In this document: piece by piece, positions 23,796 through 40,200 of the stretch
Numbering within the stretch: the first letter of the stretch is position 1
How the letters are laid out: each line of letters begins with the position of its first letter
Origin: an uncultured Spirochaetaceae bacterium
GTDB taxonomy: Bacteria > Spirochaetota > Spirochaetia > DSM-27196 > PWMO01
DNA length: 64,000 bases
Direction: 5' to 3'
NCBI GenBank assembly: GCA_964654185.1
Contig: CAZZIE010000001.1
Coordinates: 391 to 64,390 of the forward strand
Notes under the pieces: generated by a model
The model's database searches: none
Told to the model about the DNA's origin: nothing
Seen by the model: only the letters and a program-made list of their open reading frames with translations
Translations under genes and position numbers: made by a program

Positions 23796-23811
23796 ACCGA
23801 TACTATAGGCA

Positions 23812-25206
23812 GTGGAAAAACGTTACATACTGGCGGTGGATGACGATCCCACCCAGATCGAGTTGCTGAACACAATCTGCAGTGACATTGAATACCCCGA
23901 GGTAGAGTTTTCGGCGGCGGAAACCGGCGCTCAGGCGCTCGGGACGGTACGCGAGCGCGCCGTAGACATGGTCTTTCTGGACTATCGGCTTCCGGATATG
24001 ACCGGCCTGGAGGTACTGCGCGCCATGAAGGCGCACAACCCCCTGGTTGCGGTGGTGGTCATGACCGCCTACGAGTCGACCGAGCAGGCCGTTGAGGCGC
24101 TCAAGAGCGGAGCCGACGACTACCTGGTGAAGCCGACCTCGGCGGAACAGATCTCACACGTAATCCTGCGGATCACCGAAAGCCAGGCCCTCGATCGGGA
24201 GACCGCCGAGCTCGAAGATGACATTGAAGAGGACTTCGATGCCGGCTTCATCACCTTCAAGAGCCGGGAGATGGCGCGTGCTCTCAACCTGGCCGCCCGC
24301 AGCGCAAAGAGCGCGGCGTCCGTGCTGCTTCGCGGCGAGAGCGGTACCGGGAAGGAGCTCTTCGCCCGAATCATCCACTCCTCGAGCGAACGCGCCGAGC
24401 AACCCTTCGTGGCCGTGAATGTGGCCGCACTCCCGGAGACCCTGGTTGAGAGTGAACTCTTCGGCCATGTAAAGGGCTCCTTCACCGGAGCGACTCAGGA
24501 TCGGGTCGGGCGCTTCGAGGAGGCCGACGGGGGCACCCTCTTCATTGACGAGATCGGGGATGTCTCCGGCTCGGTTCAGGTCAAGCTCCTCAGGGCAATT
24601 CAGTTTGGCGAGGTGCAGCGTGTTGGGGCCAACCAGCCCATGAAGCTGGACGTTCGGATCATTACCGCCACCAACCGCAACCTGGAAGAGATGATCCGGC
24701 AGGGCACCTTCCGGGAGGACCTCTACTACCGGCTCAACGTCATTCAGATCGACCTGCCGCCTCTCCGGGACCGCAAGACGGACATTCCGCCTCTGGTGGA
24801 CCAGTTCATTGCACGGTACGCCGAGAAGAATCGGAAGCAGGTCGACGGCATCACCTTTGATGGCCTCGATCTCCTCATGAAGTACGACTTCCCGGGAAAC
24901 GTCCGGGAGCTGGAGAACATCATTGAGCGGTCGGTTGTGCTGTGCCGGGGAACCCGTCTCACCTCACGGGATCTTCCCGACGCTCTTCGCAAGGGCACTA
25001 CACCGACCACCGAGGGACGGAGCTCCGGCAAGTCCCTTGATGCCGTGCTCGCCGAGACGGAGACCCAGCTCATCCTGGACGCGCTCTCCCGGACGGAGGG
25101 CAATCAGTCCCGCGCCGCCGCCCTTCTGGACGTATCCGAGCGAAAGCTGCGCTCCCGCATGCAGCGTCTCGGCCTCGAAAACATCTACGCCGACCAGGAC
25201 TCCTGA
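23812..25206 (+). CDS. sigma-54-dependent response regulator (NtrC family enhancer-binding protein)
   Basis: Receiver domain (ILAVDDDP ... FLDYRLPDM). AAA+ domain with GESGTGKE and a GSFTGA (GAFTGA-type) sigma-54 contact loop. C-terminal Fis-type HTH (GNQSRAAALLDVSERKLRSRM). No sensor kinase is adjacent. Confidence 0.85.
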   Translation: MEKRYILAVDDDPTQIELLNTICSDIEYPEVEFSAAETGAQALGTVRERAVDMVFLDYRLPDMTGLEVLRAMKAHNPLVAVVVMTAYESTEQAVEALKSGADDYLVKPTSAEQISHVILRITESQALDRETAELEDDIEEDFDAGFITFKSREMARALNLAARSAKSAASVLLRGESGTGKELFARIIHSSSERAEQPFVAVNVAALPETLVESELFGHVKGSFTGATQDRVGRFEEADGGTLFIDEIGDVSGSVQVKLLRAIQFGEVQRVGANQPMKLDVRIITATNRNLEEMIRQGTFREDLYYRLNVIQIDLPPLRDRKTDIPPLVDQFIARYAEKNRKQVDGITFDGLDLLMKYDFPGNVRELENIIERSVVLCRGTRLTSRDLPDALRKGTTPTTEGRSSGKSLDAVLAETETQLILDALSRTEGNQSRAAALLDVSERKLRSRMQRLGLENIYADQDS

Positions 25207-25415
25207 ACGCCATTTGTTCGACGAAACGGGCGAGTGCTCGACCAGACGGTCGAGCCCAGCAGAATAAACCTGACTATGAGATTCTGAAATAGCGGTATTT
25301 GGTTATAATTGCTTTTATCTCCATTATTATTAGGTAGGCCGGATAAGTTATTGTATTGTAAAGGCTTATGCGGCGCCCTCCTTCGTCTGCGGCGAAGATA
25401 CCTCGATTGGGAGCC

Positions 25416-25431
25416 TGGCACGATTGTTGCT
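25416..25431 (+). promoter_or_regulatory. sigma-54 (-24/-12) promoter
   Basis: TGGCAC-gattg-TTGCT is an exact match to the consensus TGGCAC-N5-TTGCW. It lies about 50 nt upstream of the pilin ATG and downstream of an AT-rich tract. Confidence 0.8.
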
Positions 25432-25479
25432 ACTTAAGGGGTAGAAACGGACGACGAGTCGTCCAGGAGGTAAGAGATT

Positions 25480-25977
25480 ATGAGAAACGTACTTCGAGTT
25501 CTTGCAATGAGCGCTGCGCTCTTCGCTCTGGTGGCAGTTGCGGGGTTCGCGCAGACCGATACAGGGTCCTTGACGCTGACCGGTAATGTGCCGGCGAACG
25601 TGGACGTCACCATCAACGCGGTTCAGACGAGCTTTGCGCTGGACCAGGATGTGAGCAATGTCCAGGTCGCAACGGTGCAAGAGACCAGCAACATCGCTGC
25701 CGGCTACGACGTGACACTGGAGTCGGCCAATGCCGCCGCCGCAGGAGCCGGGACGGCGTTCTTCGAGCACACCAGCGCCGGTGATACTCTCGACTACACG
25801 CTGACCTACGGAGGATCCGCCGTGAACTTCACTTCCGGCGTCGCGACGGTTACCGACTCCACGTCGACGGCCTTTGCATTGAGCAAGTCGCTCAACATCT
25901 CCTTTTCGGGGGCGTCGGCAAACCTGACGAGCGGCAGCTACGACGACACACTGACCTTTACCATCACGGCCAAGTAG
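25480..25977 (+). CDS. secreted fimbrial major subunit, spore-coat-protein-U (SCPU)/Csu-type
   Basis: 165 aa with a signal peptide (LFALVAVAGFAQT) and a beta-rich Thr/Ser/Ala composition. The C-terminal GSYDDTLTFTITAK motif is typical of SCPU-domain pilins. AGGAGG RBS. Confidence 0.7.
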   Translation: MRNVLRVLAMSAALFALVAVAGFAQTDTGSLTLTGNVPANVDVTINAVQTSFALDQDVSNVQVATVQETSNIAAGYDVTLESANAAAAGAGTAFFEHTSAGDTLDYTLTYGGSAVNFTSGVATVTDSTSTAFALSKSLNISFSGASANLTSGSYDDTLTFTITAK

Positions 25978-26111
25978 GTCGAAATTCACAGTGAGAGGGC
26001 TCTCACGCCAGGTGGTATAGACGCCCGGCAGGTGGTCTGAACATCTGCCGGGTGTTCTGAACATCCGGCAGTGAGGAACCTCCCGGTTGATCGTCGATAA
26101 GGAGCGCAGAG

Positions 26112-26852
26112 ATGAGACGGATACTGAGCCTGCTGATCATGGTCGTTGTCACCGTATCCGTTTCCGCCTTCGACTTCAGACCCATCTCCCGTGACTTCGA
26201 TCCGCAGGGTCCGGGCGCGCTCCAGACCTTCCGGGTCACAAACAACAGAGACAGCCGGATTGCCGTTCGCATATCCATGTTCGAACGAGAGATGGAGGCG
26301 GACGGCAGTGAGGAACGAACCCGGGTGGAAGACCGATTCGTGGTCTTCCCGTCGCGCCTCACTCTGGATCCGGGTCAGACCCAGGTGATCCGCGTTCAGT
26401 GGCGGGGAGGCTCCGTTGATACGGAAGAGGCCTACCGCATTGTCGCGGAGCAACTGCCGGTAGACTTCGAGGAGCGCGCAGCGGAGGGGGGAACCCTCAA
26501 CATCCTCTTTCGCTATGTCGGCTCCGTCTACGTAGTGCCACCCGATGCCGAGCCCAATGTCACCGTCGAGGAGGCGCGCGTCGTGGATGCCGGGGAGGCC
26601 GGCGCTACTCTTGAGCTGACCATGCACAACGCCGGAACGGCACACACCATTCTGAAAGACCTCGCCCTGACGGTCACCCAGACCCGGGAGAACAATGCCA
26701 CCCAACGGGCGGCCTTCGCTCCTGAAGAGCTGTCCCCCGTCGCAGGCTCCAATCTCCTTGCCGGGGCGCGTCGCAACCTGACGCTTCAGCTCCCGGGAGA
26801 GTGGCAAGAAGGGCCTGCTGAGGTCTCCCTGGATTTCGATGTCACCCGATAG
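26112..26852 (+). CDS. periplasmic fimbrial chaperone (PapD-like)
   Basis: 246 aa with a signal peptide. It has chaperone-like blocks (FRVTNNRDSRIAV, LDPGQTQVIRVQW, YRIVAEQLP) and a two-domain length. Confidence 0.7.
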   Translation: MRRILSLLIMVVVTVSVSAFDFRPISRDFDPQGPGALQTFRVTNNRDSRIAVRISMFEREMEADGSEERTRVEDRFVVFPSRLTLDPGQTQVIRVQWRGGSVDTEEAYRIVAEQLPVDFEERAAEGGTLNILFRYVGSVYVVPPDAEPNVTVEEARVVDAGEAGATLELTMHNAGTAHTILKDLALTVTQTRENNATQRAAFAPEELSPVAGSNLLAGARRNLTLQLPGEWQEGPAEVSLDFDVTR

Positions 26853-29463
26853 AGCCATACTACCTCGGCTCGCCGCCCTTCTCACCGCGCTGATCCTGGG
26901 CCTTGTGGTCGCCGCACCGGTGCTGCCGCAGGATGGCAGCGGGACTGGCGCTGCGCGTTCCGACGCTCCGGGCGCCGAGACGCCCGCCTCCGACGCGCAG
27001 GAAGACGAGCCGCCGCCAATCGAGCTTTCCGTACCTCTCGTGGTGAACGACCGTGCGCCCGCTTCGGTGGAGGCGCGAGTCGGTCAGGATCAGACGCTGC
27101 GGGCACTCGACCGGACGGCTGTGGCCGAAGCACTTGAGCCCGTCGTGGAAGCTGAGGTGTACCGCGAGCTGGCCGCGGCGGAGGAAGCCTGGGTAAAACC
27201 GGAGGCACTCCGTGAGCTCGGCCTGGAGGTTGACTTCAACCCGGCGGAGCTTGCCGTATTCATCCGGGTTCCTCTGGAGCTCACGGCAATTCGCGAGGTA
27301 CCGGTGCTGACGCCCAGCCGGCAACACGACCTGGAGAGGGCGACACCGGCACAGCTGAGCGCGTCCCTGATCTTGCGCTCCCGCTTCGATCACGTGTTTA
27401 TCGACTCCGCATCCGGCGGGAGCCGAGACGTCTCAGTCGGGGGCGTCCTCTCTCCGGCAGTGGCCCTCTCCATCTTCACCACCGAGGCAGAGATCGAGAT
27501 CGACTCCGGCGAGGAACCGACGGTCTCTCTGGATGCGGTTCGCCTCATCGGCGATCTCCGGGGTCCGGGCATGCGCGCCACCCTCGGTGACCTGCGGTAC
27601 CCCGTGCGCGGACTCCAGGCGTACCGCCCCATGTTCGGATTCTCCATTCACCGGGAGGACGCACTCGTGGCGGATGAGAAACTCAGCGCCCGCGGCGGTG
27701 CGACCATCGAGATATCCGAGCCGACGGAGGCGCGCTTCGTCGTCAACGGGCGCACCATTCGGTCCGAACGGCTCGACCCCGGGCGATACGAGCTCACCGA
27801 CTTCCCGCTCCTGCCGGGCGTCAACGACGTGCGGGTCGAGCTTGTCGACCGAACCGGCGGCATGCGGGTCATCGAGGACGTGCTTCCGTTCTCCCCGAAG
27901 CTCCTGGCTGCCGGGGCTTACGACTACGCCGGCGCCATTGGCTTTCCCCGGTGGAGCCCTGAGGAGACGGCTGTCTCCGGCTACTACTACCGCGGCCTCA
28001 CCTCCAGCCTCACCGCGGGCGTCTACACGCAGGTCGCTGCGGCGCGGCAACTGCTGGGGCTCGGCCGGGTGCTGGCAACGCGCTTCGGCAACTTCGGCCT
28101 CGACCTGGCGTGGTCCCGCAACCCCGCCGGCGATTTCGCCTCGGCCGTCCTGGGAGAGTATCGCGTCGCACTCCTCTCCAGCTCCTGGGCTCCGCGTCTC
28201 GGTCTGATTGCGCAGTATCAGACTCCCGATTTCGGGGGACCGGGTGCCGGCACGGGCGTGTTGGATCCGGAGTGGAGCCTGACCGCCTCCCTGTCACAGA
28301 AGCTGCCCTTCGGGATCGGCGCGAATGTCTCGGTGCGGCGCCGAACCTTCTGGGGAAACCAGCCCGCCACGACGGGGTTCTCTCTCAATGTGAGTCGGGG
28401 CCTGGGAAACAGGGGAACCCTGATCGGGACCGTCACCGCAACCGTCGTCGGCGGTGAGCCTTCCTGGGGAGGGCGCATTCTCTTCTCGTCGTCGGACTCC
28501 CACCCGATCACCACGGTGAATGTGATCCAGAACGTCCGCGAACCCCAGGCGAGTGTCCGGGCATCTCAGACGCGCTCAACGCCAATCGGAGAGTTGACCG
28601 TCGCCGGCTCCGTCGCCGGGCTCCCGCCGTCCGGGGATGCGCCGCAGTCTCTGTCCGGCACCGCCCGGCTGGATAACCATCGCCTGCAGGCTTCCATGAA
28701 CCAGAGTCTCGCCTGGAACGGCGGCGAAGCATCCGGGTCGTCCCCTCTGGATCGAAGCAACACGTCCATTCAGTTCGGCACGGGACTGTACTATGCGGAC
28801 GGCGCCTTCGCCGTCGCGCGGCCCGCTCGTGGCGGCTTTGTCATGGCGCGGATTCCGCCGTCCGTGCCGATCGACCGGATTGAGCTCGGCAGCGGGAGCG
28901 AGCAGACCCGTGCCCGTACCGGAGTGCTCGGTCCGGCGGTCGTGACGGGGCTGATGCCCTACACTCCGCGCACCATCGAGGCGCAAATCGTCGGACTCCC
29001 CATCGACTACTCCCTCGGCCAGACCACCTTTACGGTCGAATCGGGATACCGTCGAGGGACCGTCCTGCCGATCGACGCGGAGCAACTGCTCTACGCGCGG
29101 GGCACGCTGGTAACGCCCTCGGGCGAGCCGGTTGCCCTGCAGCCCATTGCGCTCCTCGATCCGACGGCCGCGCCGGAGGGCGCCGGTGACGCGTCGGCGC
29201 CGGGCGGGGAGCCCGCATCAGGCGGTCAACCGGAGGCCGAAGCTTCCACCGATGTGGCGTTCGGGCTCCCCGTCGTGCAGCGCAGCTTCACGGATGAGGC
29301 TGGCGTCTTTGAAGTCTACGACTTACAGCCGGGACGATATGTCATTGCCGTCGGCGACGGCGCGCGGCGAAGCGGCACCGTAACTATCCGGGCGGGAGCC
29401 GGCGGTGTCATCGATCTCGGCGAGATCACCGTCGAGCGAGCCGGAGCACAACGGGAGCCTTGA
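26839..29463 (+). CDS. outer-membrane fimbrial usher
   Basis: 874 aa with a signal peptide. The N-terminal block resembles usher N-domains (LSVPLVVNDRAPASVEARV ... LRELGLEV), followed by a long beta-rich body and a C-terminal beta-sandwich-like tail (GVFEVYDLQPGRYVIAV). The start overlaps the chaperone gene by 14 nt. Confidence 0.65.
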   Translation: MSPDRAILPRLAALLTALILGLVVAAPVLPQDGSGTGAARSDAPGAETPASDAQEDEPPPIELSVPLVVNDRAPASVEARVGQDQTLRALDRTAVAEALEPVVEAEVYRELAAAEEAWVKPEALRELGLEVDFNPAELAVFIRVPLELTAIREVPVLTPSRQHDLERATPAQLSASLILRSRFDHVFIDSASGGSRDVSVGGVLSPAVALSIFTTEAEIEIDSGEEPTVSLDAVRLIGDLRGPGMRATLGDLRYPVRGLQAYRPMFGFSIHREDALVADEKLSARGGATIEISEPTEARFVVNGRTIRSERLDPGRYELTDFPLLPGVNDVRVELVDRTGGMRVIEDVLPFSPKLLAAGAYDYAGAIGFPRWSPEETAVSGYYYRGLTSSLTAGVYTQVAAARQLLGLGRVLATRFGNFGLDLAWSRNPAGDFASAVLGEYRVALLSSSWAPRLGLIAQYQTPDFGGPGAGTGVLDPEWSLTASLSQKLPFGIGANVSVRRRTFWGNQPATTGFSLNVSRGLGNRGTLIGTVTATVVGGEPSWGGRILFSSSDSHPITTVNVIQNVREPQASVRASQTRSTPIGELTVAGSVAGLPPSGDAPQSLSGTARLDNHRLQASMNQSLAWNGGEASGSSPLDRSNTSIQFGTGLYYADGAFAVARPARGGFVMARIPPSVPIDRIELGSGSEQTRARTGVLGPAVVTGLMPYTPRTIEAQIVGLPIDYSLGQTTFTVESGYRRGTVLPIDAEQLLYARGTLVTPSGEPVALQPIALLDPTAAPEGAGDASAPGGEPASGGQPEAEASTDVAFGLPVVQRSFTDEAGVFEVYDLQPGRYVIAVGDGARRSGTVTIRAGAGGVIDLGEITVERAGAQREP

Positions 29464-29475
29464 GGAGGTGACCAC

Positions 29476-30399
29476 ATGAACACAAAGCGATGGATTGTCC
29501 TTCCGTTTCTGCTCGCAATGACCGCTTTGTCCGCATGGGCTTTCGGTCAGGTGGAGATGCAAGACGTCTCCGGAACCATTACCGGAACCTACGACTACTC
29601 CAACGAGCTCGTCGTGACGGAGCCCTTCACCGTCTCCTACAGCGGCTCGAACGCCGTCGACTACTACATTGCCTTCTCAGCCGGCAGCTCCGGGGACGTG
29701 AACAACCGCACCCTCACGGATGGGTCCGGGAACACCCTGTCCTATCAGGTCATGGACTCTGCAACCTCCCGGAACGTCCTCCTGAACAACGCGAACGCGC
29801 AGACCACCGACGATGTGCTTGCCGGCAGCTTCTCCGGGGCGGGGCAAGAGGCGCAGAGCTTCGACATCGTCACCTTTGCCGGGCAATTCCCCCCGGCAGG
29901 ACAGTACACCGACACCCTTACGCTTACCTCCTACACCGGCTCGGTCGGGTCCGGCAGCCTCTCACGATTCGCCTTCACCACGGTGGATGTGACCGTCCCT
30001 TCGGTTGTGGAACTCTCCCTGGTCGATCCGGGAGCGCCCTTCAACCTGGCGCAGTCGGACTATCTTCTGGATTTCGGTGCCCTGTCGGCGGGAAACACGC
30101 GGCAGGTGGATCTGGTCGTCCGGTCCAATGAGACCTTCGGCGTCTCCATTGAGTCGGCGAACGCCGGCGTCATGGCCATACAACTTGCGGGAGACTCGAG
30201 CACCGTTCCCTACGTGCTCTCCGTGGATGGCTCCGCCGTCGACCTCTCCGGCGGCACGCCGGTGTCCGTGCTCTCCTCGGTGGGACCGACCGCCCTCACG
30301 GGAAGTCGCTATTCGATTTCGGTGCAGATTCAGAGCTTCGGCAACGTAACCGAGGGCGTCTACCAGGACGATCTGACGATTGTCGTGACGGCACAGTAG
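29476..30399 (+). CDS. two-domain SCPU-type fimbrial subunit (candidate tip adhesin)
   Basis: 307 aa with a signal peptide and two SCPU-like modules, each ending in the Y-x-D-x-L-T motif (GQYTDTLTLTSY and GVYQDDLTIVVTAQ). Confidence 0.6.
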   Translation: MNTKRWIVLPFLLAMTALSAWAFGQVEMQDVSGTITGTYDYSNELVVTEPFTVSYSGSNAVDYYIAFSAGSSGDVNNRTLTDGSGNTLSYQVMDSATSRNVLLNNANAQTTDDVLAGSFSGAGQEAQSFDIVTFAGQFPPAGQYTDTLTLTSYTGSVGSGSLSRFAFTTVDVTVPSVVELSLVDPGAPFNLAQSDYLLDFGALSAGNTRQVDLVVRSNETFGVSIESANAGVMAIQLAGDSSTVPYVLSVDGSAVDLSGGTPVSVLSSVGPTALTGSRYSISVQIQSFGNVTEGVYQDDLTIVVTAQ

Positions 30400-31037: not shown

Positions 31038-31814
31038 ATGCCCGTTACGCTTCCAGGCCAGGATTCGGCCGCACCCGCCGGGGCCGAGCGGTTCCCCGCC
31101 GACCGACGCGATCGCCCCTCTCCATCACGGCGGGGAAGCCGTCTGCCCGGGCTCATGCCCGCCCGGCGGCTGCGGCGTGCCGCACGCCCCCTCGCCCTGC
31201 TGTTTCCGGCCATCCCGGTTCTCACCGGCTGTGCCGCCGGCTTCGACGGCGCCCTCGGCGGCGCATTCGACGCCGCGCCCTTTGTCTATGAAGACCTGGC
31301 CGTCGTGCACGGGGCGGTTCCCGACTGTCACGAGCACCTTGGCCTCTACGTCTCCATCCGGAATACCTCGGCGAAGGCTTTCTCCGCCTTCTCGCACTCC
31401 TTCTATCTCTTCACCGAGGACGGGACGCCCCTCGGCACGGTTCAGACGCGCCGGGTTCGCGGTGAGGTGGAGGCATCCCTCCAACCCGGCGACGCCGAGG
31501 GCTACTGCACCTCCCTGGACTCGGTCTTTCACTTCCTTCCGGCTGAGACCACCGAAGTCCGGCAATACCGGATCGATGAAATTCGCTTCGACGACGGCGG
31601 CCGATGGCGCCCGGTCACCGCCTCCTACGCCTACCCCTACCCGGCGCGCGCGGAACAGGCCGGGGAGGCCGGGGCGGCGGCGCAGCACGCGGATGCCCCG
31701 CGGCCGGACCGGTCCGGCCGCGCAGATCCCCCGAGGCCGCGCCGGCTCGACCGAGCGGCACGCAGCTCAGCAGCCGCCCCGGCGGCCGCTCCCTTCCGGG
31801 AGGCCGCCCCATGA
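31038..31814 (+). CDS. hypothetical lipoprotein (first gene of the RHS operon)
   Basis: Strong AAGGAGG RBS 7 nt before ATG 31038. An Arg-rich n-region (ARRLRRAARP) is followed by LALLFPAIPVLTGC (lipobox). An alternative start is at 31155. The stop overlaps the next start (ATGA). Confidence 0.55.
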   Translation: MPVTLPGQDSAAPAGAERFPADRRDRPSPSRRGSRLPGLMPARRLRRAARPLALLFPAIPVLTGCAAGFDGALGGAFDAAPFVYEDLAVVHGAVPDCHEHLGLYVSIRNTSAKAFSAFSHSFYLFTEDGTPLGTVQTRRVRGEVEASLQPGDAEGYCTSLDSVFHFLPAETTEVRQYRIDEIRFDDGGRWRPVTASYAYPYPARAEQAGEAGAAAQHADAPRPDRSGRADPPRPRRLDRAARSSAAAPAAAPFREAAP

Positions 31815-34225
31815 GCCACCGGCCGCCGCGCAGCCCCGCGATCCCGGCGTCCATCGCCGTCGCCGCCGCTGTCTTTGCCGCCGTTCTCTCGGCCTGCGAC
31901 GCCCCCTTCGCGGCAAGGCTCCAGCCGACCGCGCCCGTCCGCCCACCTGTCACCGTCACCACTCGCGTCGAGCCGGCAAGCGCCGGGACCGTGACCGTAA
32001 CCGGTGCGGCCGCCCCCTACCGTCGCGGAGACCACCTGCAAGTCACCGCCCACCCGGCTGAGGGGTGGCGCCTCCTCGGCTGGACCACGGAGCTGGGTGC
32101 CGCCGGCGCGCAGAGCGCCGGTGCGGCGGATCCCGGCCCTCTGGGGGCCGCCCCCGCCGCGGCGAGCCCTGGCCCCGCCGCCGGGACCAGCCCCGGCCCT
32201 GCGGCCGCCCCCGCCGCGGCGAGCCCTGGCCCTGCGGCCAGCCCCAGTCCCGGCCCTGCTGCCGGCGAGCCCACCGCTGCGGCGGGCGCCGCCCCACGAA
32301 CCGCCGCGGGCAGCGCCGCGGCCGGCCCGGCCTCCCCGCCCGCTAACCCCCTCTCCCTGGTTCTGTCGGAGAGCGTCACCGTCATTGCGCGTTTCGGACC
32401 GGCTGCCTACGCCGTCACGACGGACGTCCTGGGGAACGGCACGGTTCAGGTCTCCGGTGACGGATGGCAGCCCGGGACGCCGGAGGGCAGCGCGGATCCC
32501 GACGGAACCGCCGCTCCCGGGGCTGAGATCACCTTCGAGGCGGTACCTGCCGCCGGAAACGGCTTCTCCCACTGGGAGGGGAGCGCCGCCGGCGCGGCCA
32601 ACCCCGCGACCCTGACGGTCGCCGAGCCCCTTGACCTCACCGCGGTCTTCTCGGCGGAACAGTTTGCCCTCTCGTACGAAGCGGTCGGGGAGGGGAGCAT
32701 TGCCGTCGAGGTTGTCGACGGCGCGGCCGGAGGTGATACCGAGGCCGGGAGCGCCGATCCGACCGAGGGTGTCGTCTATGGAAGCGAGGTCCGTCTCACT
32801 GCCGAACCCGCGCCGGGCTGGCGCTTCCTCCACTGGGGGGACGACCCGGCGGACGCCGCGAACCCGAAAACCCTGACCGTCACGGGCAGTCGGCACATCC
32901 GAGCCGTCTTCGCCGCCAACGAGTGGACCGTTCTCCTCTACATGAACGGCGACAACGAGCTCGAAGCCAATCTCCTGGAAGATGTCAACGAGCTCGAAGC
33001 GGTGGATCTCTCCGGAACCGGCGTCACCGTGGTGGCGCTGGTCGACCGCGCCGACGGGCACGCCACGAGCAACGGTGACTGGCGGGGCACCCGGCTCTAC
33101 CGCATTTCCTTCGATCCCGACGGCACCAATACCGCCCTGGTCTCTCATCGTCTCGCAAGCGCCCGGATGGGCCTGAGCGATACCGGCGACGACGAAGAGC
33201 TCAATCTGGGAAGCGCGGCAACGCTATCGGATTTCCTGGATTTCGCTGCGGCGGAGTTTCCGGCTGAGAACACCGCCCTCATCTTCTGGGGGCACGGCGG
33301 CGGCTACCGGGCTGCATCGGGAGCGCGTACAGCTGCCGGAAGATACGGTCACGGCCACACTGGCGCTGCGACATGGTCGATCCCGGGACCCCGCGGAAAG
33401 GCGCCACTCTCCACCGCAGGACACCGGGCGGTCACCGTCGACGACGGAAGCGGCGGGGACCACCTTCTCACGCCCGAGCTCGGGGGCGCCCTTGCCGGGC
33501 GCGATCTCGATGTCCTGGCCTTCGACCTCTGCTACGGGGCGCTCCTCGAAGTTGCGTATGAGGTGCGCACTTCTGCGGAGCTGTTCATTGCCTCCCAGGA
33601 CGTCGTCGGCGCCGACGGCTGGGAGTATGACCGCTTCCTCGATCGCTTCCTCCAGGGTCCGCGCGACCCGGCGGATTTCGCCGCCGCTGCAACGGACGTC
33701 TTCGAAGCGAGCCACGCCCAGGCGCACCGCGCCACGATCTCCGTCCTGGACCTGGCAGAGATCGATGGTGTCGCCTCCGCGCTGGACGACCTCTCGGTGG
33801 CACTGGTCGAGTGGATAGCTGCAGGCAGCGCCTCACAGCGCCGGGCAACGCTCCGCGACGGGATCTTCTCGCAGGTCGAGGATTTCTATGCGACCCCCGG
33901 AGACCTCAACATCGACCTGCGGGACCTCTCACGGTACGTCGCGTCGGATCTCGGCGCCGCTTCCGCGGAGGCGGCCGCCCTGGATGCGGCGGTGGCGCAG
34001 GCGGTGCTGTACTCCTGGGCCGGTCCGGGGAACCCCCGCGCAGGGGGACTGAGCGTACACTACGTTCCGCTCGACTCCCTGGGATATCCCGTCGTCCATG
34101 CGGACTCCTACTTCGCCGACCAGACCGCCACGCCACCGCTTTCCTTCGTTGGGGCCTCCGAGTGGGTGCCCAACCCGAGTACCGGGACGGGACTCCTCTA
34201 TCGGCTCTGGTACGAGGCGCTCTGA
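31811..34225 (+). CDS. lipoprotein with InlB-B-repeat-like modules and a C-terminal peptidase C11 (clostripain-fold) domain
   Basis: N-terminus AVFAAVLSAC (lipobox). Three repeats of the type V.V...G.G.V ... GW.F.GW are separated by Ala/Pro linkers. The C11-like core is EWTVLLYMNGDNELE, VVALVDRADGH, a His in FWGHGGG and a Cys in AFDLCYGA. GGGAGG RBS. The ORF-track start at 31604 is an overlap artefact. Confidence 0.75.
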   Translation: MSHRPPRSPAIPASIAVAAAVFAAVLSACDAPFAARLQPTAPVRPPVTVTTRVEPASAGTVTVTGAAAPYRRGDHLQVTAHPAEGWRLLGWTTELGAAGAQSAGAADPGPLGAAPAAASPGPAAGTSPGPAAAPAAASPGPAASPSPGPAAGEPTAAAGAAPRTAAGSAAAGPASPPANPLSLVLSESVTVIARFGPAAYAVTTDVLGNGTVQVSGDGWQPGTPEGSADPDGTAAPGAEITFEAVPAAGNGFSHWEGSAAGAANPATLTVAEPLDLTAVFSAEQFALSYEAVGEGSIAVEVVDGAAGGDTEAGSADPTEGVVYGSEVRLTAEPAPGWRFLHWGDDPADAANPKTLTVTGSRHIRAVFAANEWTVLLYMNGDNELEANLLEDVNELEAVDLSGTGVTVVALVDRADGHATSNGDWRGTRLYRISFDPDGTNTALVSHRLASARMGLSDTGDDEELNLGSAATLSDFLDFAAAEFPAENTALIFWGHGGGYRAASGARTAAGRYGHGHTGAATWSIPGPRGKAPLSTAGHRAVTVDDGSGGDHLLTPELGGALAGRDLDVLAFDLCYGALLEVAYEVRTSAELFIASQDVVGADGWEYDRFLDRFLQGPRDPADFAAAATDVFEASHAQAHRATISVLDLAEIDGVASALDDLSVALVEWIAAGSASQRRATLRDGIFSQVEDFYATPGDLNIDLRDLSRYVASDLGAASAEAAALDAAVAQAVLYSWAGPGNPRAGGLSVHYVPLDSLGYPVVHADSYFADQTATPPLSFVGASEWVPNPSTGTGLLYRLWYEAL

Positions 34226-37200
34226 TGGGCCGGCTAGGTCTGGTAACGGCGATCTGGGGCGTCGGGATGTGTGCGATTGTCGCCGTTGAGCGCGCGGATG
34301 CCTCCACCTGCACGAAGCCGGTGGTGTGCTGGGACGGCTCCTGCGTCTACTTCAGCGATCAGTGCCCGCCCGAGCCGCCTCCCGATGATGGCCCCTCGGA
34401 TGGGGATGGAGACGGCATCCCGGATGGTGCCGACAACTGCCCGGGCACGGCAAACGCCGGACAGGCCGACTCGGACGGAGATGGCACCGGTGACGCCTGC
34501 GACTCGACTCCTCATGGCGGATCCGGAGGCGGAGGATCCGGCGGAGGGGGCTCCGGTGGAGGAGCGGGTGGTAGTGACGAGTTCGACGGCGTCGTAAACA
34601 GCCGCGGGGAGATCGACGACGCCCTCGATCACGCCGACGGGAACCTGGACGAGAGCGACGACTACTTCGACATTCCGTCCTCTCTGGACACCGCCGTGCC
34701 GGGTGCCAAAGGTGATCTCGAGGACATAACCGATCCCGCCGACGGCTCCCTCTCCAAAGTTCAGAATGAGGCTGATGATCTCGACAGCGCCGTGACGGCC
34801 GGCGAGAAGGCCCTCGAGGAGTTCGACGATCCGGTGGGTTCAGCGGACAAGCTTTCCGAATCCCACGTTGAGATAACGAGTGTGGACGTCCCGGCTCTCG
34901 AGTCTGCGGCGGGAGAGCTCGCGCTGACGGCGGGCATCGGTGGGGGCGGCGCCGTGGCGAACCACGGAGCCGCGGCGGACTACATTGCGGCAGGCGTTCA
35001 CTATGAGAGCGTCTCCGGCGCTGCCGAGGAGGTCGCAGAGGCCGCCGCCGAATCACGCGAGATTCTGGCGACCATGACGGAGGGTGCGACCGCAGCCACC
35101 GACGCGCTCGTCGATACCGAACGCACCTACGCCGCCGAGCGAGGCGGCGATCCCGTCGCCCTTGCCACGGGCACCTTCTTCACGCAGGAGACCGATCTCG
35201 CCGTGGCAACTCCGGCGCAGGTGCTCCTCCGGTTGCCCGAGGAGCTGCCCGGCCTGGGGGTCCTCGCCGCGCGGACCCCCGGTGCGGACAACTCCCTCGC
35301 GGGTGCTGCGGCGGCCGCTGCGGGGGACGCTACGCTGATCTTCCGCCGATACTACAACAGCTCCGCAGGGTCCGGCCACGCCGGGGGTACGGTCGCCATC
35401 GACGGCGTCACCGGTGCTGCCGGCAGCACCGGAACTCTGGGGCCGGGGTGGCGTCACTCCTTTCAGAGTCGCCTCTTCATTGGATACGACGGTGTCACCG
35501 CCGCCGAGGTGCGGGAGCTCCAGGAGCGCTCCTCCCGGGCGGCGACCCGGGTCCGGGAGGCACGAGACACCCTGGAGGATGCGCGGCGGAGTGCCGCATC
35601 CGCCGTCGAGGGGTACCGGGACTCCCTGGAGCTTGCCGAGGCGCTCGCGGTGGGGTGGCGGGACCTGAGAGATGCAGCTCTCGCCGCCGCCGAGGAAGGG
35701 GCGGAACTGCGGCGCGCCGCCGGGGAAGCGGATGAGCAGGTTGCGCCGTCGCACGCCGCGTCTGCGGAGGAGCTGGTGGCGCGAGCAGACGAGATCGAAG
35801 CGAGCCTTGCGGAGCTGGATGACCGTTTCAGCGGGCTCATCCGGCGCGCCGACAGAGCCGAGCGGAACGCCGAGAGTGCGCGCAGCTCCTACCAGGCGGT
35901 CATCGACTTTGTCGATGGGCTTCTCGTTGAGTGGAACTCCGACCAGGACGCCCGCGCCTCCGCGACCGCCGGAGTGACGACCGCCCTGGATCAGCGCGAC
36001 CGCGCGGCGGAGCATGAGGAGTCGCTGCGGAATCGAGTGAGCTCCATCGCGGACGCCCTGGCGAAGGTAGAGGACCTCGGCACCGACGAGCTTGACCGCG
36101 TCTCGGCCCTGCGCGACCGAACTGAGCACGTCCTCTCGGTAACGGGCGTCTTCCCGGATGATCCCGCCGCCTACGCGCCGTATGTGCGAGCGCAGGCGGG
36201 ATACCGCGAAGCCGTCGAGTTGCGAGACGGCCTCCTGCCGACCGGACTTGCCGCGGCGGAGCAGCGGCTCCGGGCAATCGAGACGGAGGGGCCCGTCATC
36301 ATCGGCACAATGGAGGAGAGCCGGGAGGTCACCGAGGCCGTCGCGGAGGACGCAGGAAACCGCAGCGACTACGCGGTCTCGGCGGCGCGTCGCAACGGTG
36401 CGCTCCCGTCCGGGGCGGACCCCGGCGCAACAGGGATGGGCACCTTCACCGTGATCGGCGCCGACGGTGCGCCCAGGCTCTTCCGGACCGGTGCGGAGCC
36501 CGCCTTTGCCGGGCCGACGAGTATCGGTGACGGCCTCGTCCACTACTACCGGCGCGACGTCACGGCGCACCCCGACGCACCCGGCGATTACGGACGCCTC
36601 ATCGTCCGGCGCGACGGGAGCTACATCCTGGAGGAGCGCAACGGCACCGAGCATCGGTACGATGCCTACGGGCGGCTGACAGGCGTTACCGCCCGGGGCG
36701 GTGCAGCGGTGACCCTGGAGTACGAGGGCCTCGGCGAAGGGGGACGTTTGCGCCGCGTCGTCGACGACGCCGGAAGGACGCTTGCCCTGCAGTACGACCG
36801 CGACCGTCTCGTCGAGGTCGCCGGGCCCGACGGCGCCGCGGTTCGCTACGGGTACGACGGCCAGGGGCGGCTTCACTCCGTAACTGATCCGAGTGGCCGC
36901 ACTCGGCACTATCGCTACCGGGGGCACCTTCTCACCTTCATCGGGACACCGCGACACGTAGCGGCCAGCGCCGAAGCGCCGTCGGGCGGTGGCGCCGCCG
37001 CGCCGGATCATGCCGACGGACCGGGCCGGCGCTACAACTACGAGCGGCGCGACGGGCGCGACGTCGTGACATGGACGGAGGATGAGGCGGGCCACCGTGA
37101 GCTCTTCAGCTACCATCCCGGTGAGAGCCCTTACGGCGCGGGCTACACCAAGCACACGGGCTACCACGACTGGACGGAAGCCGGCGCCGCCGTGACCACG

Positions 37201-40200
37201 AGGACCCACTATGACACCAACCTGCGGACCGTCCGTCGGGAGTGGCTGAACTCCGACGGCGTCGTTGCCGCCTGGGAGTCCTTTGTGCACGACGCGGCTG
37301 GCAACGTCGTTCGGCGCGAAGCGGGTGGCGACGGCGTCCGCCGCGTATGGCGCTTCGCCTACGACGGTGACGGCAATCTCGTGGCCCGGATCGATCCGGA
37401 CGGCGTCGAAGAGAGCTGGGAGTACGATGCCGACGGCAATGTGACCGCCCACACCAATGGCGCAGGCGAAACTACGCGATTGACCTGCGACGCTTCAGGG
37501 AGGCTCACCGGCGCGCACTACCCGACCGGCGCCGCCTTTCGGTACCGCTACGACACCGAGGGAAATCTCACGGAGATTCGGCGTCTCCTGAACGGGCGGT
37601 GGCACGCGACGCGGCTCGTCTATGGTCGCCATGGGTACCCGACCTCCGTGGAGTACCCGGATGGAGCCACGGCCGCACTTCGCCACGACGCGTATGGACG
37701 TCCGGCCGCCCATATCTCGCGCCTCGGACTGGCAACGGAGGACCGTCGGGGGCCGGCGGGGCGACTTCTGGAGCGCTCATACGCAGACGGGAGCGCCGAA
37801 GTCTTTCGGTACGACGCCGCCGGAAACCTGACGGAGACGAAGGATCGCCTCGGCCACGTCACGCGTTACGAGCACGACCCGCGTGGACTCGTCACCAGTG
37901 TGTTTCGGGAACGCATTGTCGATGTGGAGACCGGGGCGAATACCGTGGACGCAAGGACCTACCGATACCGTGCGGACGGCCGCCTGGCCGAACGGCGGGC
38001 GGGCCGCCGGGAAGGGGGCGAGTCGGCGCAGTGGCGGTACGACTACGACTATCGGGGCCGTCTCATCCGGGAGGAGGAAACCACCACGGGAACCCTCACG
38101 CGCTACGCCTACGACGCAGCGGGGAATCTGGTCGAACGCGCAACCGAGCCGACCGGTGTCGCGCCCGCCGGCGCGGGGACGGGTGCGGCGGCGGGTGCGG
38201 GGGCGGGCGCGGCGGGTGTCCCGGCCACGGCCCGGACCTTCGTCACGAAGTACGGCTATTCACCGGCCGGCCGCCTGGAGTGGACCGAAAACGGTGCAGG
38301 CGAGCGGACCCGCTTCGACCGCGACGGAGCCGGGGAGGTGACCGCCGCAATTGATCCGGCAGGACACCGGACACGGATTCGCCGGGACACTGCCGGGCGC
38401 ACCATCCTCACGACCGCGGTGCCCGGGGCGCCGCCGGAGGTGCGGCGCTTCGACGAGGCGGGGCATCTCATCGAGCTCAGCGACCCCGACGGCAGCACCT
38501 GGCGCTACGAGTACGACCCCGCCGGGCGCATCCGCCGCGAGAGCGCCCCGGACGGCGGCGAGACCACCTACACCTACCGCCATCTCACCCCCGGCATGGA
38601 GGTCACTCGCACCGACCCTCTGGGCAACGACTGGGTCCTGCGATTCGACGCCGCCGGTCGCCGCATCGGGGCAGTCGACCCGACCGGCGCCGAGACCAGC
38701 TTCGAGCGGGACGCAGCCGGCAGAATCACTACAGTGATCGATGCTCACGGCAACCGCCGCAGCTACGTCTACGACGCTGTCGGCAACGTCCTTGCCCGGA
38801 TGGATGCGTACGGTAACGGCCGCACCTTCACCTACGACGCGCTGGGCCACCCCGCCTCCGTCACGCTCCCGACTGGTGAGACGACGCGCTTCGGCTACGA
38901 CGCACTGGGCCGGCGCCGCTGGATCGAAGAACCCCTCGGCAACCGCACGCACTTCACCTACGACGTGGCGGGAAACCTCCTGGCCACGGAAACCCCGATG
39001 GGTCTGACCCGGCGCTTCACCTACGACGCTGCCGGACGCGCCGTTGCGCGGATCGAGCCGGACGGTGCGACCTACCGGTACGAGTATGACGCGCGGGGGC
39101 GCACCACGGGTGAGATCGATCCGACCGGAAGCGTTCGTCGGTACGAGTACGAGGAGAACGCCCGCGGCAACCTCATCGCGGAGGTCAACCGCCTGGGCGC
39201 GCGAAGGACCATCTCCTACGGTGCCGCCGGACGCATCGACTCAATGACTGACTTCAACGGCGTTCTCCATGACTTCGACTACGATCCCGCAGGACGGTTG
39301 ATCCGAGAGGTGGCCGAGGGGGAGGTGGTCCGCGCCTTCGAGTACGACGTGCGGGGAGATCTGGTGCGCGCGGCCAGCCCGGCCGCCGCGCTGGAGTTCG
39401 ACTACGACGAGCGGGGGCTTCTGGTCGAGAGCCGGGACCGGGACGCGGAGGTCGCCGTCGCCTACGAGTACGATGCCGCAGGGCGCCGCACCCGCGTCCT
39501 CACCGAGGGCTACGAGATCGCAACCTCCTACGGCGCCATGGGGGAGGTGCGGGAGGTCGCCTTCGACGACGGGTCGGCCTTCGGCGCAGGGGAGGGGCGG
39601 ATCCGCCTGGAGTACGACGAAAGCCTCCGCGAGCGCGTGCGCCGTTTTGCCGGGAGCCTGGTCGCCGAGCGCCACTATGATGAGGCGGGGCGCCTCGCCG
39701 GAGTGGTTCATCGAGGGGGCGGTGGCGTCGCCGGTGAGGTCCTGGACGCGGAGGCCTACGTCTACGATCGGGACGGGCGGCGCATCTACACGGTGGACGA
39801 GGCTGGTGGCCTCACCGCGTACCGGTACGACACCGCGGGTCGTCTGGCTGCGGCGCTCTATCCTCACGAGGATGGTGTGGTGGCGTCTCACCTTCGACAG
39901 CTCAAGGCAGTCGGCATGGTGTCGCCGCCGGCGCAGGCGGACCGGCTTGGTACCATTGGCGCGGCCACCGGTTCGCGCGGCGGCTCGCGCGGCAGCTCCG
40001 TCGCGGTTGCGGGACGGATCACCATTCCCTCTGAAGAGAGGGATCTCATCCGGGAGGTTACGGAGCAGGTCCTCCCTCGGCGCAAGGGCGGCACGTTCCT
40101 CTCTCGGGAGATGTGGGGCGAGAGCTTCACGTACGACGAGCGGGGCAACCTCACCGGGGTGGCCACACCGCTCGGGACGATCGGGTTTGCCTACGACGCT

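Follow-up and report, generated by a model that had tools for sequence, protein, structure and literature searches.

Can a free-living spirochaete build a chaperone-usher pilus, and what would switch its production on? Among the adhesins of Gram-negative bacteria, chaperone-usher pili have been studied most, and in Spirochaetota internal flagella are more familiar than external fibres. The question is raised by a locus of a Spirochaetaceae-related bacterium, located in a 64-kb stretch of DNA referred to here as the window. Open reading frame calls place in it, in succession, an NtrC-type activator gene, a 273-bp gap, and genes for a pilin, a PapD-like chaperone, an usher and a two-domain SCPU subunit. 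The four-gene order from major subunit to two-domain subunit, as given in the original prediction, is found in the called frames; it is the order pilin, chaperone, usher, two-domain tip subunit of the Csu and CupE type, and is repeated in dozens of related loci.

Judged from its sequence, the locus is very probably a chaperone-usher pilus operon, complete and of the archaic type (Csu/CupE-like, with SCPU subunits). Sigma-54 and the NtrC-type response regulator encoded directly upstream are most likely both strictly required for its transcription. A chaperone-usher operon with a putative sigma-54 switch in a free-living spirochaete is a real feature, and activation appears to proceed solely through the dedicated sigma-54 activator. 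The literature searched does not list chaperone-usher pili for Spirochaetota and ties no chaperone-usher operon to sigma-54; no earlier description was found under sigma-54 with chaperone-usher systems, spirochaete chaperone-usher systems, or spirochaete RpoN regulons with fimbriae.

Pilus components

The major pilin gene (25480-25977, plus strand) encodes 165 residues comprising a signal peptide, a donor-strand-like N-terminal segment (TGSLTLTGNV) and an incomplete Ig-like fold. The protein matches nothing in Pfam or NCBIfam, and SCPU is matched weakly in 6 of its 62 homologs (best E 2.9e-4). The AF2 model of the pilin, with a pLDDT of 90.3, has top Foldseek matches that are all chaperone-usher pilins at probability 1.0, including CfaB, CupE (8cio), Caf1, SafA and Csu (7zl4); the match to CupE1 8cio has an E of 4.5e-4. 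Residues ∼20-40 are unstructured in the model and carry a conserved motif of alternating hydrophobicity, TGTLTLxGTVP. According to this model, the 165-aa protein has a chaperone-usher pilin fold with a donor-strand-like N-terminus.

The last gene (29476-30399, plus strand) encodes a two-domain subunit of 307 residues, the presumed tip adhesin. Its N-terminal domain matches SCPU with 43 bits over residues 44-151, as found in 17 of the 19 members of the tip family, and its C-terminal domain is homologous to the pilin (98.8% probability when the pilin family is aligned with it by hhalign; E 3e-6 in BLASTP of the pilin against tip residues 221-307). Single-sequence searches of the pilin and of the tip protein against solved structures gave no match. 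Both subunits had been assigned to the SCPU type; at the Pfam SCPU threshold this stands for the 307-aa protein, while the 165-aa pilin does not reach it. The Y-x-D-x-L-T-h-x-h-T ending ascribed to the subunits is real and is nearly invariant in the 62 pilin homologs (Y154, D156, L158, T159, T161).

HMM searches had been suggested for the two assembly proteins, and both are recognized. The periplasmic PapD-like chaperone (26112-26852, plus strand) matches PapD_N (PF00345) with 35 bits for a cutoff of 23, and the outer-membrane usher of 874 residues (26839-29463, plus strand), whose frame overlaps that of the chaperone by 14 nt, matches PF00577 with 28.3 bits for a cutoff of 27.1. Against solved structures, a 25-member chaperone profile retrieves CsuC (E 4e-6), EcpB (4e-5) and CfaA (0.018). 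A usher profile built from 27 members matches FimD with an E of 6.5e-20 over ∼630 positions (profile 155-784, FimD 141-802), and further matches PapC and the Caf1A plug; the ushers in the PDB set are classical ones only (FimD, PapC). Pfam Usher is matched by 21 of the 27 members, with a best E of 3.8e-24. A profile of five sequences found no match among solved structures, and the AF2 usher model made from five sequences was unusable (pLDDT 40) and was left out of the fold search. The archaic, or sigma-clade, label is based on the SCPU subunits, the gene order and the weak best match of the chaperone to CsuC. All four components begin with a hydrophobic N-terminus, read by eye from the translations as a Sec signal peptide; AxA-type cleavage sites can be placed in the same manner in the pilin (GFA/Q), chaperone (VSA/F) and tip protein (AWA/F), the usher showing the hydrophobic N-terminus.

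Such components need not build a fibre. SCPU is named after a Myxococcus spore-coat protein, whose chaperone-usher-like export is mentioned in the literature, and the Mcu system of Myxococcus xanthus, like the locus in the window, pairs a PapD-like chaperone and an usher with a cargo that carries an SCPU domain. The locus could then be a secretion system that lays an SCPU protein as a surface coat, and no fibre has been seen so far in spirochaetes with the locus. We consider this improbable: what Mcu delivers is part of the spore coat of an organism that sporulates, and we know of no sporulation in spirochaetes, whereas the modeled pilin fold, its unstructured N-terminal extension with the alternating hydrophobic motif typical of donor strands, and the two-domain tip-type subunit in last position, as in Csu and CupE, suggest a fibre.

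Activator, promoter and candidate enhancer

If the genes build a pilus, its control would be exerted from directly upstream. The gene at 23812-25206 (plus strand) encodes a sigma-54 enhancer-binding response regulator composed of a receiver, an AAA+ domain with a GSFTGA loop at residue 222, and a Fis-type HTH; Pfam identifies Response_reg (PF00072, 96 bits), Sigma54_activat (PF00158, 236 bits), AAA_lid_14 and HTH_8. The gene begins 16 nt past the stop codon of coaX and probably shares a transcript with prs-coaX. Direct reading of the receiver finds D57, T85 and K107 all present. Across the activator family, D57 and K107 are each kept in 26 of 26 members, Walker A is kept, and a GAFTGA-type loop occurs in 32 of 33, the variants being GAFTGA (15), GSFTGA (11), GAYTGA (3), GSYTGA (2) and GAFTDA (1). 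The activator falls below the cutoff of every named activator equivalog of NCBIfam. The domains and loop are those originally predicted, and so is the orphan state: the 64-kb window contains neither a histidine-kinase (H-box) motif nor a second activator, and there is no kinase gene among the neighbours in the window, L002, L169 or L170. Likewise, no RpoN-box motif occurs within the window, and rpoN is not among its genes.

In the gap between activator and pilin lies a -24/-12 element, TGGCACGATTGTTGCT (TGGCAC-GATTG-TTGCT; 25416-25431, plus strand), an exact match to the consensus and the perfect TGGCAC-N5-TTGCT announced by the original prediction. It is the single exact match in 64 kb, where 0.02 are expected by chance, and transcription is predicted to start near 25442. 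A search tolerating one mismatch returns the same single match in the window, though 1.1 are expected, so that it adds no evidence. The comparison with relatives, gathered with the pilin alignment as query, is more informative. The element is kept in loci with usher identities of 85%, 48% and 43% (L001, L002 and L007), and in 40 of 61 unique related loci it is found no farther than 150 nt before the pilin ATG, at 26-64 nt in most carriers. Background sequence yields 7 matches in 855 kb, or 0.0012 per 150 nt, which makes the enrichment more than 500-fold. Several of these 7 background matches stand before other pilus genes.

The element also follows the activator, being present in 23 of the 24 loci with an adjacent receiver-type activator and in 3 of the 14 without one. 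These counts bear on the idea that the match is fortuitous or vestigial and that a housekeeping sigma factor transcribes from the AT-rich region with its TATAAT-like strings. With up to one mismatch allowed, the window element is not significant by itself, and 19 of 43 loci have TATAAT or ATTATA in their spacer; however, these strings have no fixed position (-151 to -12), and no sigma-70-like promoter was called on the plus strand of the locus, whereas the exact element keeps its distance to the ATG across divergent loci and co-occurs tightly with the activator gene. We give this idea almost no credence. Sigma-54 control is nevertheless best described as predominant, not universal, in the family, because a quarter to a third of the loci lack an adjacent receiver-type activator, and four of them have an RtcR-like activator with no -24/-12 element before the pilin gene.

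Further upstream, two palindromes of the type TTCGAC-N6-GTCGAA, absent from the earlier reading of the locus, stand in tandem. Site 1, the imperfect palindrome TTCGACGAAACGGGCGAG (25217-25234), is centred ∼191 bp upstream of the -24 GG, and site 2, the perfect palindrome CTCGACCAGACGGTCGAG (25237-25254), ∼171 bp upstream, giving a centre-to-centre distance of 20 bp. Site 2 is the sole perfect palindrome match of this type in the window and is kept in L001, L002 and L007, the last with the symmetric variant CTCGCC..GGCGAG. Of 38 related loci, 24 have at least two sites, where 0.14 would be expected per region; their spacing peaks at 20-22 bp, with other pairs 30-32 bp apart, and the pairs lie ∼110-200 bp upstream of the -24 position. 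Such a layout is that of a textbook enhancer (UAS), to which the activator may bind.

The palindromes start 10-60 nt past the activator stop codon and can form short hairpins, so they could instead be read as the terminator of the activator gene, with the activator binding elsewhere or regulating other genes. This reading, which we hold to be very unlikely, was rejected on several grounds. Half-site sequence (TCGAC or TCGCC) is kept across loci, and not pairing alone; the palindromes come in pairs at 20-22 or 30-32 bp, without U-tracts; and among the ∼20 loci in which tandem palindromes were inspected, two have a divergent activator gene. One of these is L097, where the palindromes are not the terminator of the activator because its gene is divergently oriented.

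The candidate enhancer and the promoter are separated by an AT-rich spacer (25261-25370). The original prediction described an AT-rich gap of 270 bp after the activator; it measures 273 bp with 48% GC, and its 110-bp core, the spacer itself, has 32% GC in a 65% GC genome, the whole window likewise being at 65%. The spacer is presumed to be a bending or looping region. In the family, AT content reaches 0.59-0.68 between -90 and -20, against 0.44 overall. The E. coli IHF consensus occurs in the spacer in 8 of 43 loci, which is no enrichment. Overall, the predicted link between sigma-54 and the activator is upheld, as far as comparison of loci can tell, by an element, an adjacent activator and a palindrome pair that are kept together across dozens of divergent loci, and the sigma-54 switch appears to be a conserved property of a large, previously undescribed operon family.

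Transcript hairpins and proposed mechanism

Between the predicted start and the pilin ATG, folding proposes a leader hairpin, GGACGACGAGTCGTCC (25449-25464), followed by the RBS GGAGG (25466-25470), the whole covering 25449-25471 on the plus strand. Its z of 0.05 is not significant alone; comparable small hairpins reach -3.7 in L002 and -3.0 in L007. After the pilin gene, an intercistronic stem-loop (25978-26098, plus strand) has a dG of -65 kcal/mol and a z of -4.7, and none of 200 shuffles folds as well. Relatives repeat a hairpin at this position, with a z of -4.5 in L138 and terminator-like U-tracts in L094, L098, L109 and L123. The stem-loop is presumed to attenuate transcription or stabilise the mRNA, and so to set how much pilin is made relative to the assembly machinery; its effect on read-through in the window is uncertain because it has no U-tract. 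An Rfam scan of the window found no known RNA.

A hairpin of this strength raises the possibility that it is a terminator, so that the sigma-54 promoter would drive essentially the pilin alone and the chaperone, usher and tip genes would be transcribed from a separate promoter outside enhancer-dependent control. The U-tracts of the four relatives are compatible with this division, as are L097, whose chaperone-usher genes are encoded on the opposite strand and have a -24/-12 element of their own, and L164, where a second pilin gene comes with a separate element. On the other hand, 25978-26111 contains neither a second -24/-12 element nor a sigma-70-like site on the plus strand, the window hairpin is without a U-tract, and the separate machinery of L097 likewise has a sigma-54 element. 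Partial read-through past such hairpins is usual in classical pilus operons and also counts against the division, which we regard as possible but rather unlikely.

Control of the entire operon by sigma-54 would operate as follows. The activator, probably made constitutively with prs-coaX, would be phosphorylated on D57 by an unlinked kinase or a small phosphodonor. Its dimers would occupy the two palindromes, whose conservation suggests binding with centres 20 bp apart, ∼170-190 bp upstream of the promoter. Through the 32% GC spacer, the bound oligomer could loop to the sigma-54 holoenzyme at TGGCAC-N5-TTGCT, and ATP hydrolysis coupled by the GSFTGA loop would open the promoter, with a start near 25442. 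The pilin gene would be transcribed first, and the hairpin that follows may curb read-through to the chaperone, usher and tip genes, leaving pilin in excess. By analogy with the family, chaperone and usher would polymerise pilins by donor-strand exchange under the two-domain tip subunit. The pilus would probably serve adhesion or aggregation in mats or sediments, under tight gating.

Known systems and distribution in Spirochaetota

The closest counterparts are archaic. The Csu pili of Acinetobacter baumannii (csuA/BABCDE) and Burkholderia thailandensis (csuFABCDE) share the order of pilin(s), chaperone, usher and two-domain tip and, as far as the tip protein is concerned, the SCPU type of subunit; CsuC is the closest solved relative of the window chaperone, and the Csu pilin 7zl4 is among the structural matches. 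The Csu operon is under the dedicated two-component regulator BfmRS, with no mention of sigma-54 (PMC12124856). In contrast, the window regulator belongs to the AAA+ sigma-54 activators and is paired with a -24/-12 promoter and a distant candidate enhancer; there is one pilin gene, not three or four, and its product is too divergent for Pfam SCPU; the kinase is unlinked to the locus, and the host phylum is Spirochaetota. BfmR itself is an OmpR-type regulator. CupE of Pseudomonas aeruginosa (cupE1-6), activated by PprA-PprB, is likewise archaic, with the tip adhesin as last gene (PMC10104325), and CupE1 is a structural match of the window pilin; it differs from the window in that the literature examined reports no sigma-54 promoter for cupE and describes regulators of the BfmRS or PprAB type for archaic pili. 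The described distribution of archaic pili covers proteobacteria, cyanobacteria and Deinococcota, Spirochaetota not being included (PMC10104325).

The regulatory logic has its parallel in other systems. In PilS-PilR/RpoN control of type IV pilins (Pseudomonas, Xanthomonas PilRX and commensal Neisseria Npa), an NtrC-type regulator binds upstream sites and activates a sigma-54 promoter immediately before the major pilin gene (PMC7170775, PMC6528607). The logic is the same as in the window, but type IV pili differ entirely from chaperone-usher pili, both as fibres and in their assembly machinery. In PilS-PilR-type systems the kinase is usually adjacent, unlike in the window. Borrelia burgdorferi offers a spirochaete NtrC-type activator working with sigma-54, Rrp2, the target of which is rpoS and not a surface fibre. 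Rrp2 is documented to be activated by acetyl-phosphate rather than by an adjacent kinase (PMC2940757), and provides a precedent for an 'orphan' activator. The likeness between Rrp2 and the window activator concerns type and sigma-54 partner, with no claim of orthology. To our knowledge, Borrelia has no chaperone-usher locus.

The pilin family counts 1,706 representatives (∼1,700 sequence clusters), and all its organism-named members are Spirochaetota; Spirochaeta isovalerica and an assembly labelled Salinispira pacifica have the same layout. With the usher alignment as query, no related loci were found in species-representative genomes or metagenome contigs. Among Spirochaetaceae MAGs, the two nearest by AceE (76-77% identity) have neither the locus nor the prs-coaX synteny. 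The claim that the locus is lower in GC than its flanks is not clearly sustained: it has 0.637, against 0.618 upstream and 0.70 downstream, and the usher gene has 0.68. Synteny with prs-coaX is kept down to 43% usher identity, which means that the GC dip is no sign of foreign origin; a horizontal-transfer island was rejected on this synteny and on a GC content not distinct from that of the upstream flank.

The locus implies no new biochemical principle. What it brings is a large Spirochaetota family with a complete and predictable sigma-54 circuit of activator, candidate binding sites and promoter. It yields a testable regulon in the cultured Spirochaeta isovalerica, a candidate binding motif in DNA for activators of an uncharacterised family, a pilin family overlooked by current domain libraries, and a possible handle on how spirochaetes change between swimming and attachment in mats and sediments. 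More tentatively, these operons may form a chaperone-usher clade that is specific to spirochaetes, has a distinct pilin family lacking annotation, and was under enhancer-dependent sigma-54 control from its origin, likely because external fibres are incompatible with motility by rotation of the spirochaete body. If so, the operon would be a hard-off/hard-on switch between swimming and attachment; neither an external adhesive fibre system nor a motile-to-sessile switch of the developmental type would have been described in free-living spirochaetes before it.

Components of the locus

The five open reading frames of the original prediction are all found, in the order and at the positions that it had assigned to them on the forward strand (23812-30399). 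The first encodes a 464-aa activator (23812-25206), whose Response_reg, Sigma54_activat (236 bits), AAA_lid_14 and HTH_8 domains in Pfam confirm its place in the NtrC family. It is followed by genes for a 165-aa pilin (25480-25977), a 246-aa chaperone (26112-26852), an 874-aa usher (26839-29463) and a 307-aa two-domain subunit, the tip (29476-30399). The last three genes, for chaperone, usher and tip, lie close together, the usher gene overlapping the chaperone gene by 14 nt. The PapD_N and Usher assignments hold, both matches exceeding their cutoffs (35 versus 23 bits and 28.3 versus 27.1 bits), while the assignment of both subunits to the SCPU type stands at the Pfam level for the tip (43 bits, residues 44-151) but not for the pilin, which has no Pfam or NCBIfam match. 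The proposed lower GC content of the locus relative to its flanks proved weak (0.637, with 0.618 in the upstream flank). Two minus-strand reading frames antisense to the pilin and chaperone genes, 25366-26064 (232 aa) and 25986-26885 (299 aa), lack homology support and were rejected as spurious. Such long antisense frames are usual in high-GC DNA.

The AF2 model of the pilin (pLDDT 90.3) has only chaperone-usher pilins as structural neighbours, namely CfaB, CupE (8cio), CS17, Caf1, SafA and Csu (7zl4). Towards its N-terminus, residues of about 20-40 lack structure and include the conserved alternating motif TGTLTLxGTVP, as would be expected of a donor strand. The C-terminal half aligns to residues 221-307 of the tip (E 3e-6), and profile-profile comparison of the whole pilin family with the tip C-terminal domain gives a probability of 98.8% (E 5e-17). 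In the tip family, 17 of 19 members have SCPU as their N-terminal domain, and a weak SCPU match occurs in 6 of 62 pilins. An indexed search returned 61 pilin homologs, including those of Salinispira pacifica and Spirochaeta isovalerica, none of them with a Pfam domain; an exhaustive search extended the family to 1,706 cluster representatives (E <= 1e-3), of which 1,011 reach E <= 1e-10.

Among solved structures, the chaperone profile best matches the archaic chaperone CsuC (E 4e-6), followed by EcpB and CfaA. With the same profile, 66 close relatives score 196 bits or more; the named ones among them all belong to Spirochaetes/Spirochaetota, the next named match being Brevundimonas at 82 bits. 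A 27-member usher profile matches FimD (E 6.5e-20) over the barrel, plug and C-terminal region, and also PapC and the Caf1A plug; Pfam Usher is matched by 21 of the 27 members, and the AF2 model of the usher is of low confidence (pLDDT 40). Low-complexity inserts rich in Ala, Pro, Asp and Glu occur after the signal peptide (residues ~30-60) and near the C-terminus (~775-805) of the usher, which ends in a CarboxypepD_reg-like beta-sandwich present in 11 of 27 family members. These inserts and the terminal domain are unusual for ushers.

Given the identities of pilin, tip, chaperone and usher, the system is a predicted chaperone-usher pilus, archaic-type by its features rather than by usher phylogeny, and its subunits would assemble into a fibre.

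Relatives and genomic neighbourhood

A word-indexed search yielded only six usher relatives, including one in a MAG labelled 'Spirochaetes bacterium'. The conserved order comprises the PDH E1/E2 genes, prs, coaX, activator, pilin, chaperone, usher and two-domain subunit, and is closed by a SnoaL gene on the opposite strand. Since this order is kept at 85% and at 43% usher identity as well as in the MAG, the locus has been vertically inherited in this lineage. The AceE of the window shares 76-77% identity with that of two MAGs of Spirochaetaceae, and no other AceE exceeds 67%; the pilus locus is absent from these two MAGs. The region downstream of the locus encodes a C11 peptidase of the clostripain family that carries InlB B-repeat domains (31604-34225), and an RHS-repeat protein of 2,617 aa (33811-41664); this pair is also found downstream of the pilus in the related locus L002.

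Predicted sigma-54 promoter and candidate enhancer

The gap between the activator and pilin genes measures 273 bp, with 48% GC overall and 32% in a 110-bp core, in a window of 65% GC. The perfect -24/-12 element claimed for this AT-rich gap is indeed present: TGGCACGATTGTTGCT (25416-25431) lies 48 nt upstream of the pilin ATG, and no other stretch of the window matches TGGCAC-N5-TTGCW exactly (0.02 matches expected). The element is still the sole match with up to one mismatch, but as 1.1 are then expected by chance, this wider search does not strengthen the case. The element is kept in close relatives of the locus.

Scanning metagenomes with the alignment of pilins added 80 further loci, and a tblastn survey of the loci revealed a recurrent layout of activator, pilin, chaperone, usher and tip. 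In 40 of the 61 unique loci whose upstream sequence spans 150 nt or more, the pattern TGGCAY-N5-NTGCW lies no more than 150 nt from the pilin ATG, mostly 26-64 nt away, against 7 matches in 855 kb for the remainder of the same loci (0.0012 per 150 nt). Two of these seven adjoin other pilus genes, preceding a second pilin gene in locus L164 (4577) and, in locus L097 (2496), a chaperone-usher pair encoded on the opposite strand, which indicates that individual pilus transcription units are accompanied by sigma-54 promoter modules. Of the 38 unique loci whose upstream sequence reaches 1.8 kb or more, 24 have an adjacent receiver-type activator, and 23 of these have the element, the exception (L138) reading TTGAA in place of TTGCA; the element occurs in 3 of the 14 loci without such an activator.

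In about 20 inspected loci, two palindromes of the TTCGAC-N6-GTCGAA type lie directly 3' of the activator stop, with symmetric variants such as CTCGCC..GGCGAG in the related locus L007. The candidate enhancer of the window consists of an imperfect site (25217-25234) and a perfect one (25237-25254), which has no second perfect match in the 64-kb window. At least two sites are present in the -260 to -40 region of 24 of 38 loci (0.14 expected). The commonest distance between sites is 20-22 bp, followed by a smaller peak at 30-32 bp, so that they face the same side of the helix. The possibility that the palindromes terminate the activator gene was rejected, as they persist at L097, where this gene is divergent. 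Across family loci, AT content between enhancer and promoter is 0.59-0.68, versus 0.44 overall; this spacer is not enriched in IHF sites of the E. coli type. S. isovalerica and an assembly labelled S. pacifica share the recurrent gene layout and likewise have palindromes and -24/-12 elements. In S. isovalerica (assembly GCA_014207565.1) the locus occupies about 101.9-108.5 kb of JACHGJ010000005.1, corresponding to 6367-13001 of L170.

Activator input, RNA structures and known systems

The activator family retains the phospho-acceptor Asp and the conserved Lys (each in 26/26), Walker A and a GAFTGA-type loop (32/33). The activator had been called an orphan, and no kinase gene is found near any inspected locus; an unlinked kinase or a small phosphodonor would provide the activating input. 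Borrelia Rrp2, a spirochaete activator reported to be activated by acetyl-phosphate (PMC2940757), offers a precedent for such an 'orphan'. coaX ends 16 nt upstream of the activator gene (23796-23811), and 2 nt upstream of it in L002 (6919-6922). coaX encodes type III pantothenate kinase, prs lies upstream and the pyruvate dehydrogenase genes adjoin divergently; the activator gene is probably co-transcribed with housekeeping genes. The coaX-activator synteny is confined to the closest relatives and absent in S. isovalerica.

In a sub-clade of the pilus loci (L100, 3596-5900; also L099, L104, L131 and L133), the activator has an RtcR/CARF-like N-terminus (PF06956, 25.9 bits) and no receiver. The pilin gene follows less than 100 nt after the activator stop without a -24/-12 element, and a good element lies on the opposite strand, before a PEGA-domain lipoprotein gene. 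This suggests the same pilus under a different input, possibly nucleotide-sensing.

Just downstream of the pilin gene, the sequence can fold into a very stable stem-loop (25978-26098; -65 kcal/mol, z -4.7). A hairpin recurs at this position across the family, with a U-tract in lower-GC loci, as expected of a predicted attenuator giving pilin excess; the assembly genes would be reached by read-through. A small leader hairpin just upstream of the pilin ribosome-binding site (not significant in the window, 25449-25464, z 0.05, but significant in L002, 8582-8608, z -3.7, and in L007, 1142-1175, z -3.0) may serve mRNA stabilisation or translation control.

The archaic Csu and CupE pili share with the window locus the gene order, an SCPU-type subunit (here the tip) and two-component control, the last being a prediction for the window. 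However, Csu is regulated by BfmRS (PMC12124856) and CupE by PprAB (PMC10104325), without mention of sigma-54 in these papers, whereas the window locus has a predicted sigma-54 module. Full-text searches found no paper linking sigma-54 to a chaperone-usher operon, and Francke et al., in a comparative study of sigma-54, treat pili only generically, never naming ushers or fimbriae. The regulatory logic is the one by which PilR and RpoN control type IV pilin genes. Spirochaetota are missing from the stated distribution of archaic pili (PMC10104325), and literature searches found no description of chaperone-usher pili in spirochaetes.

The feature is real, and its original interpretation is supported and extended. 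The fibre-assembly pathway is known, the phylum is unreported for it, and the predicted sigma-54 enhancer coupling is family-wide. The host would possess rpoN, and transcription would depend on rpoN and the activator. The binding sites of the enhancer module can now be predicted, and S. isovalerica provides a cultured carrier of the locus in which tests can be made.
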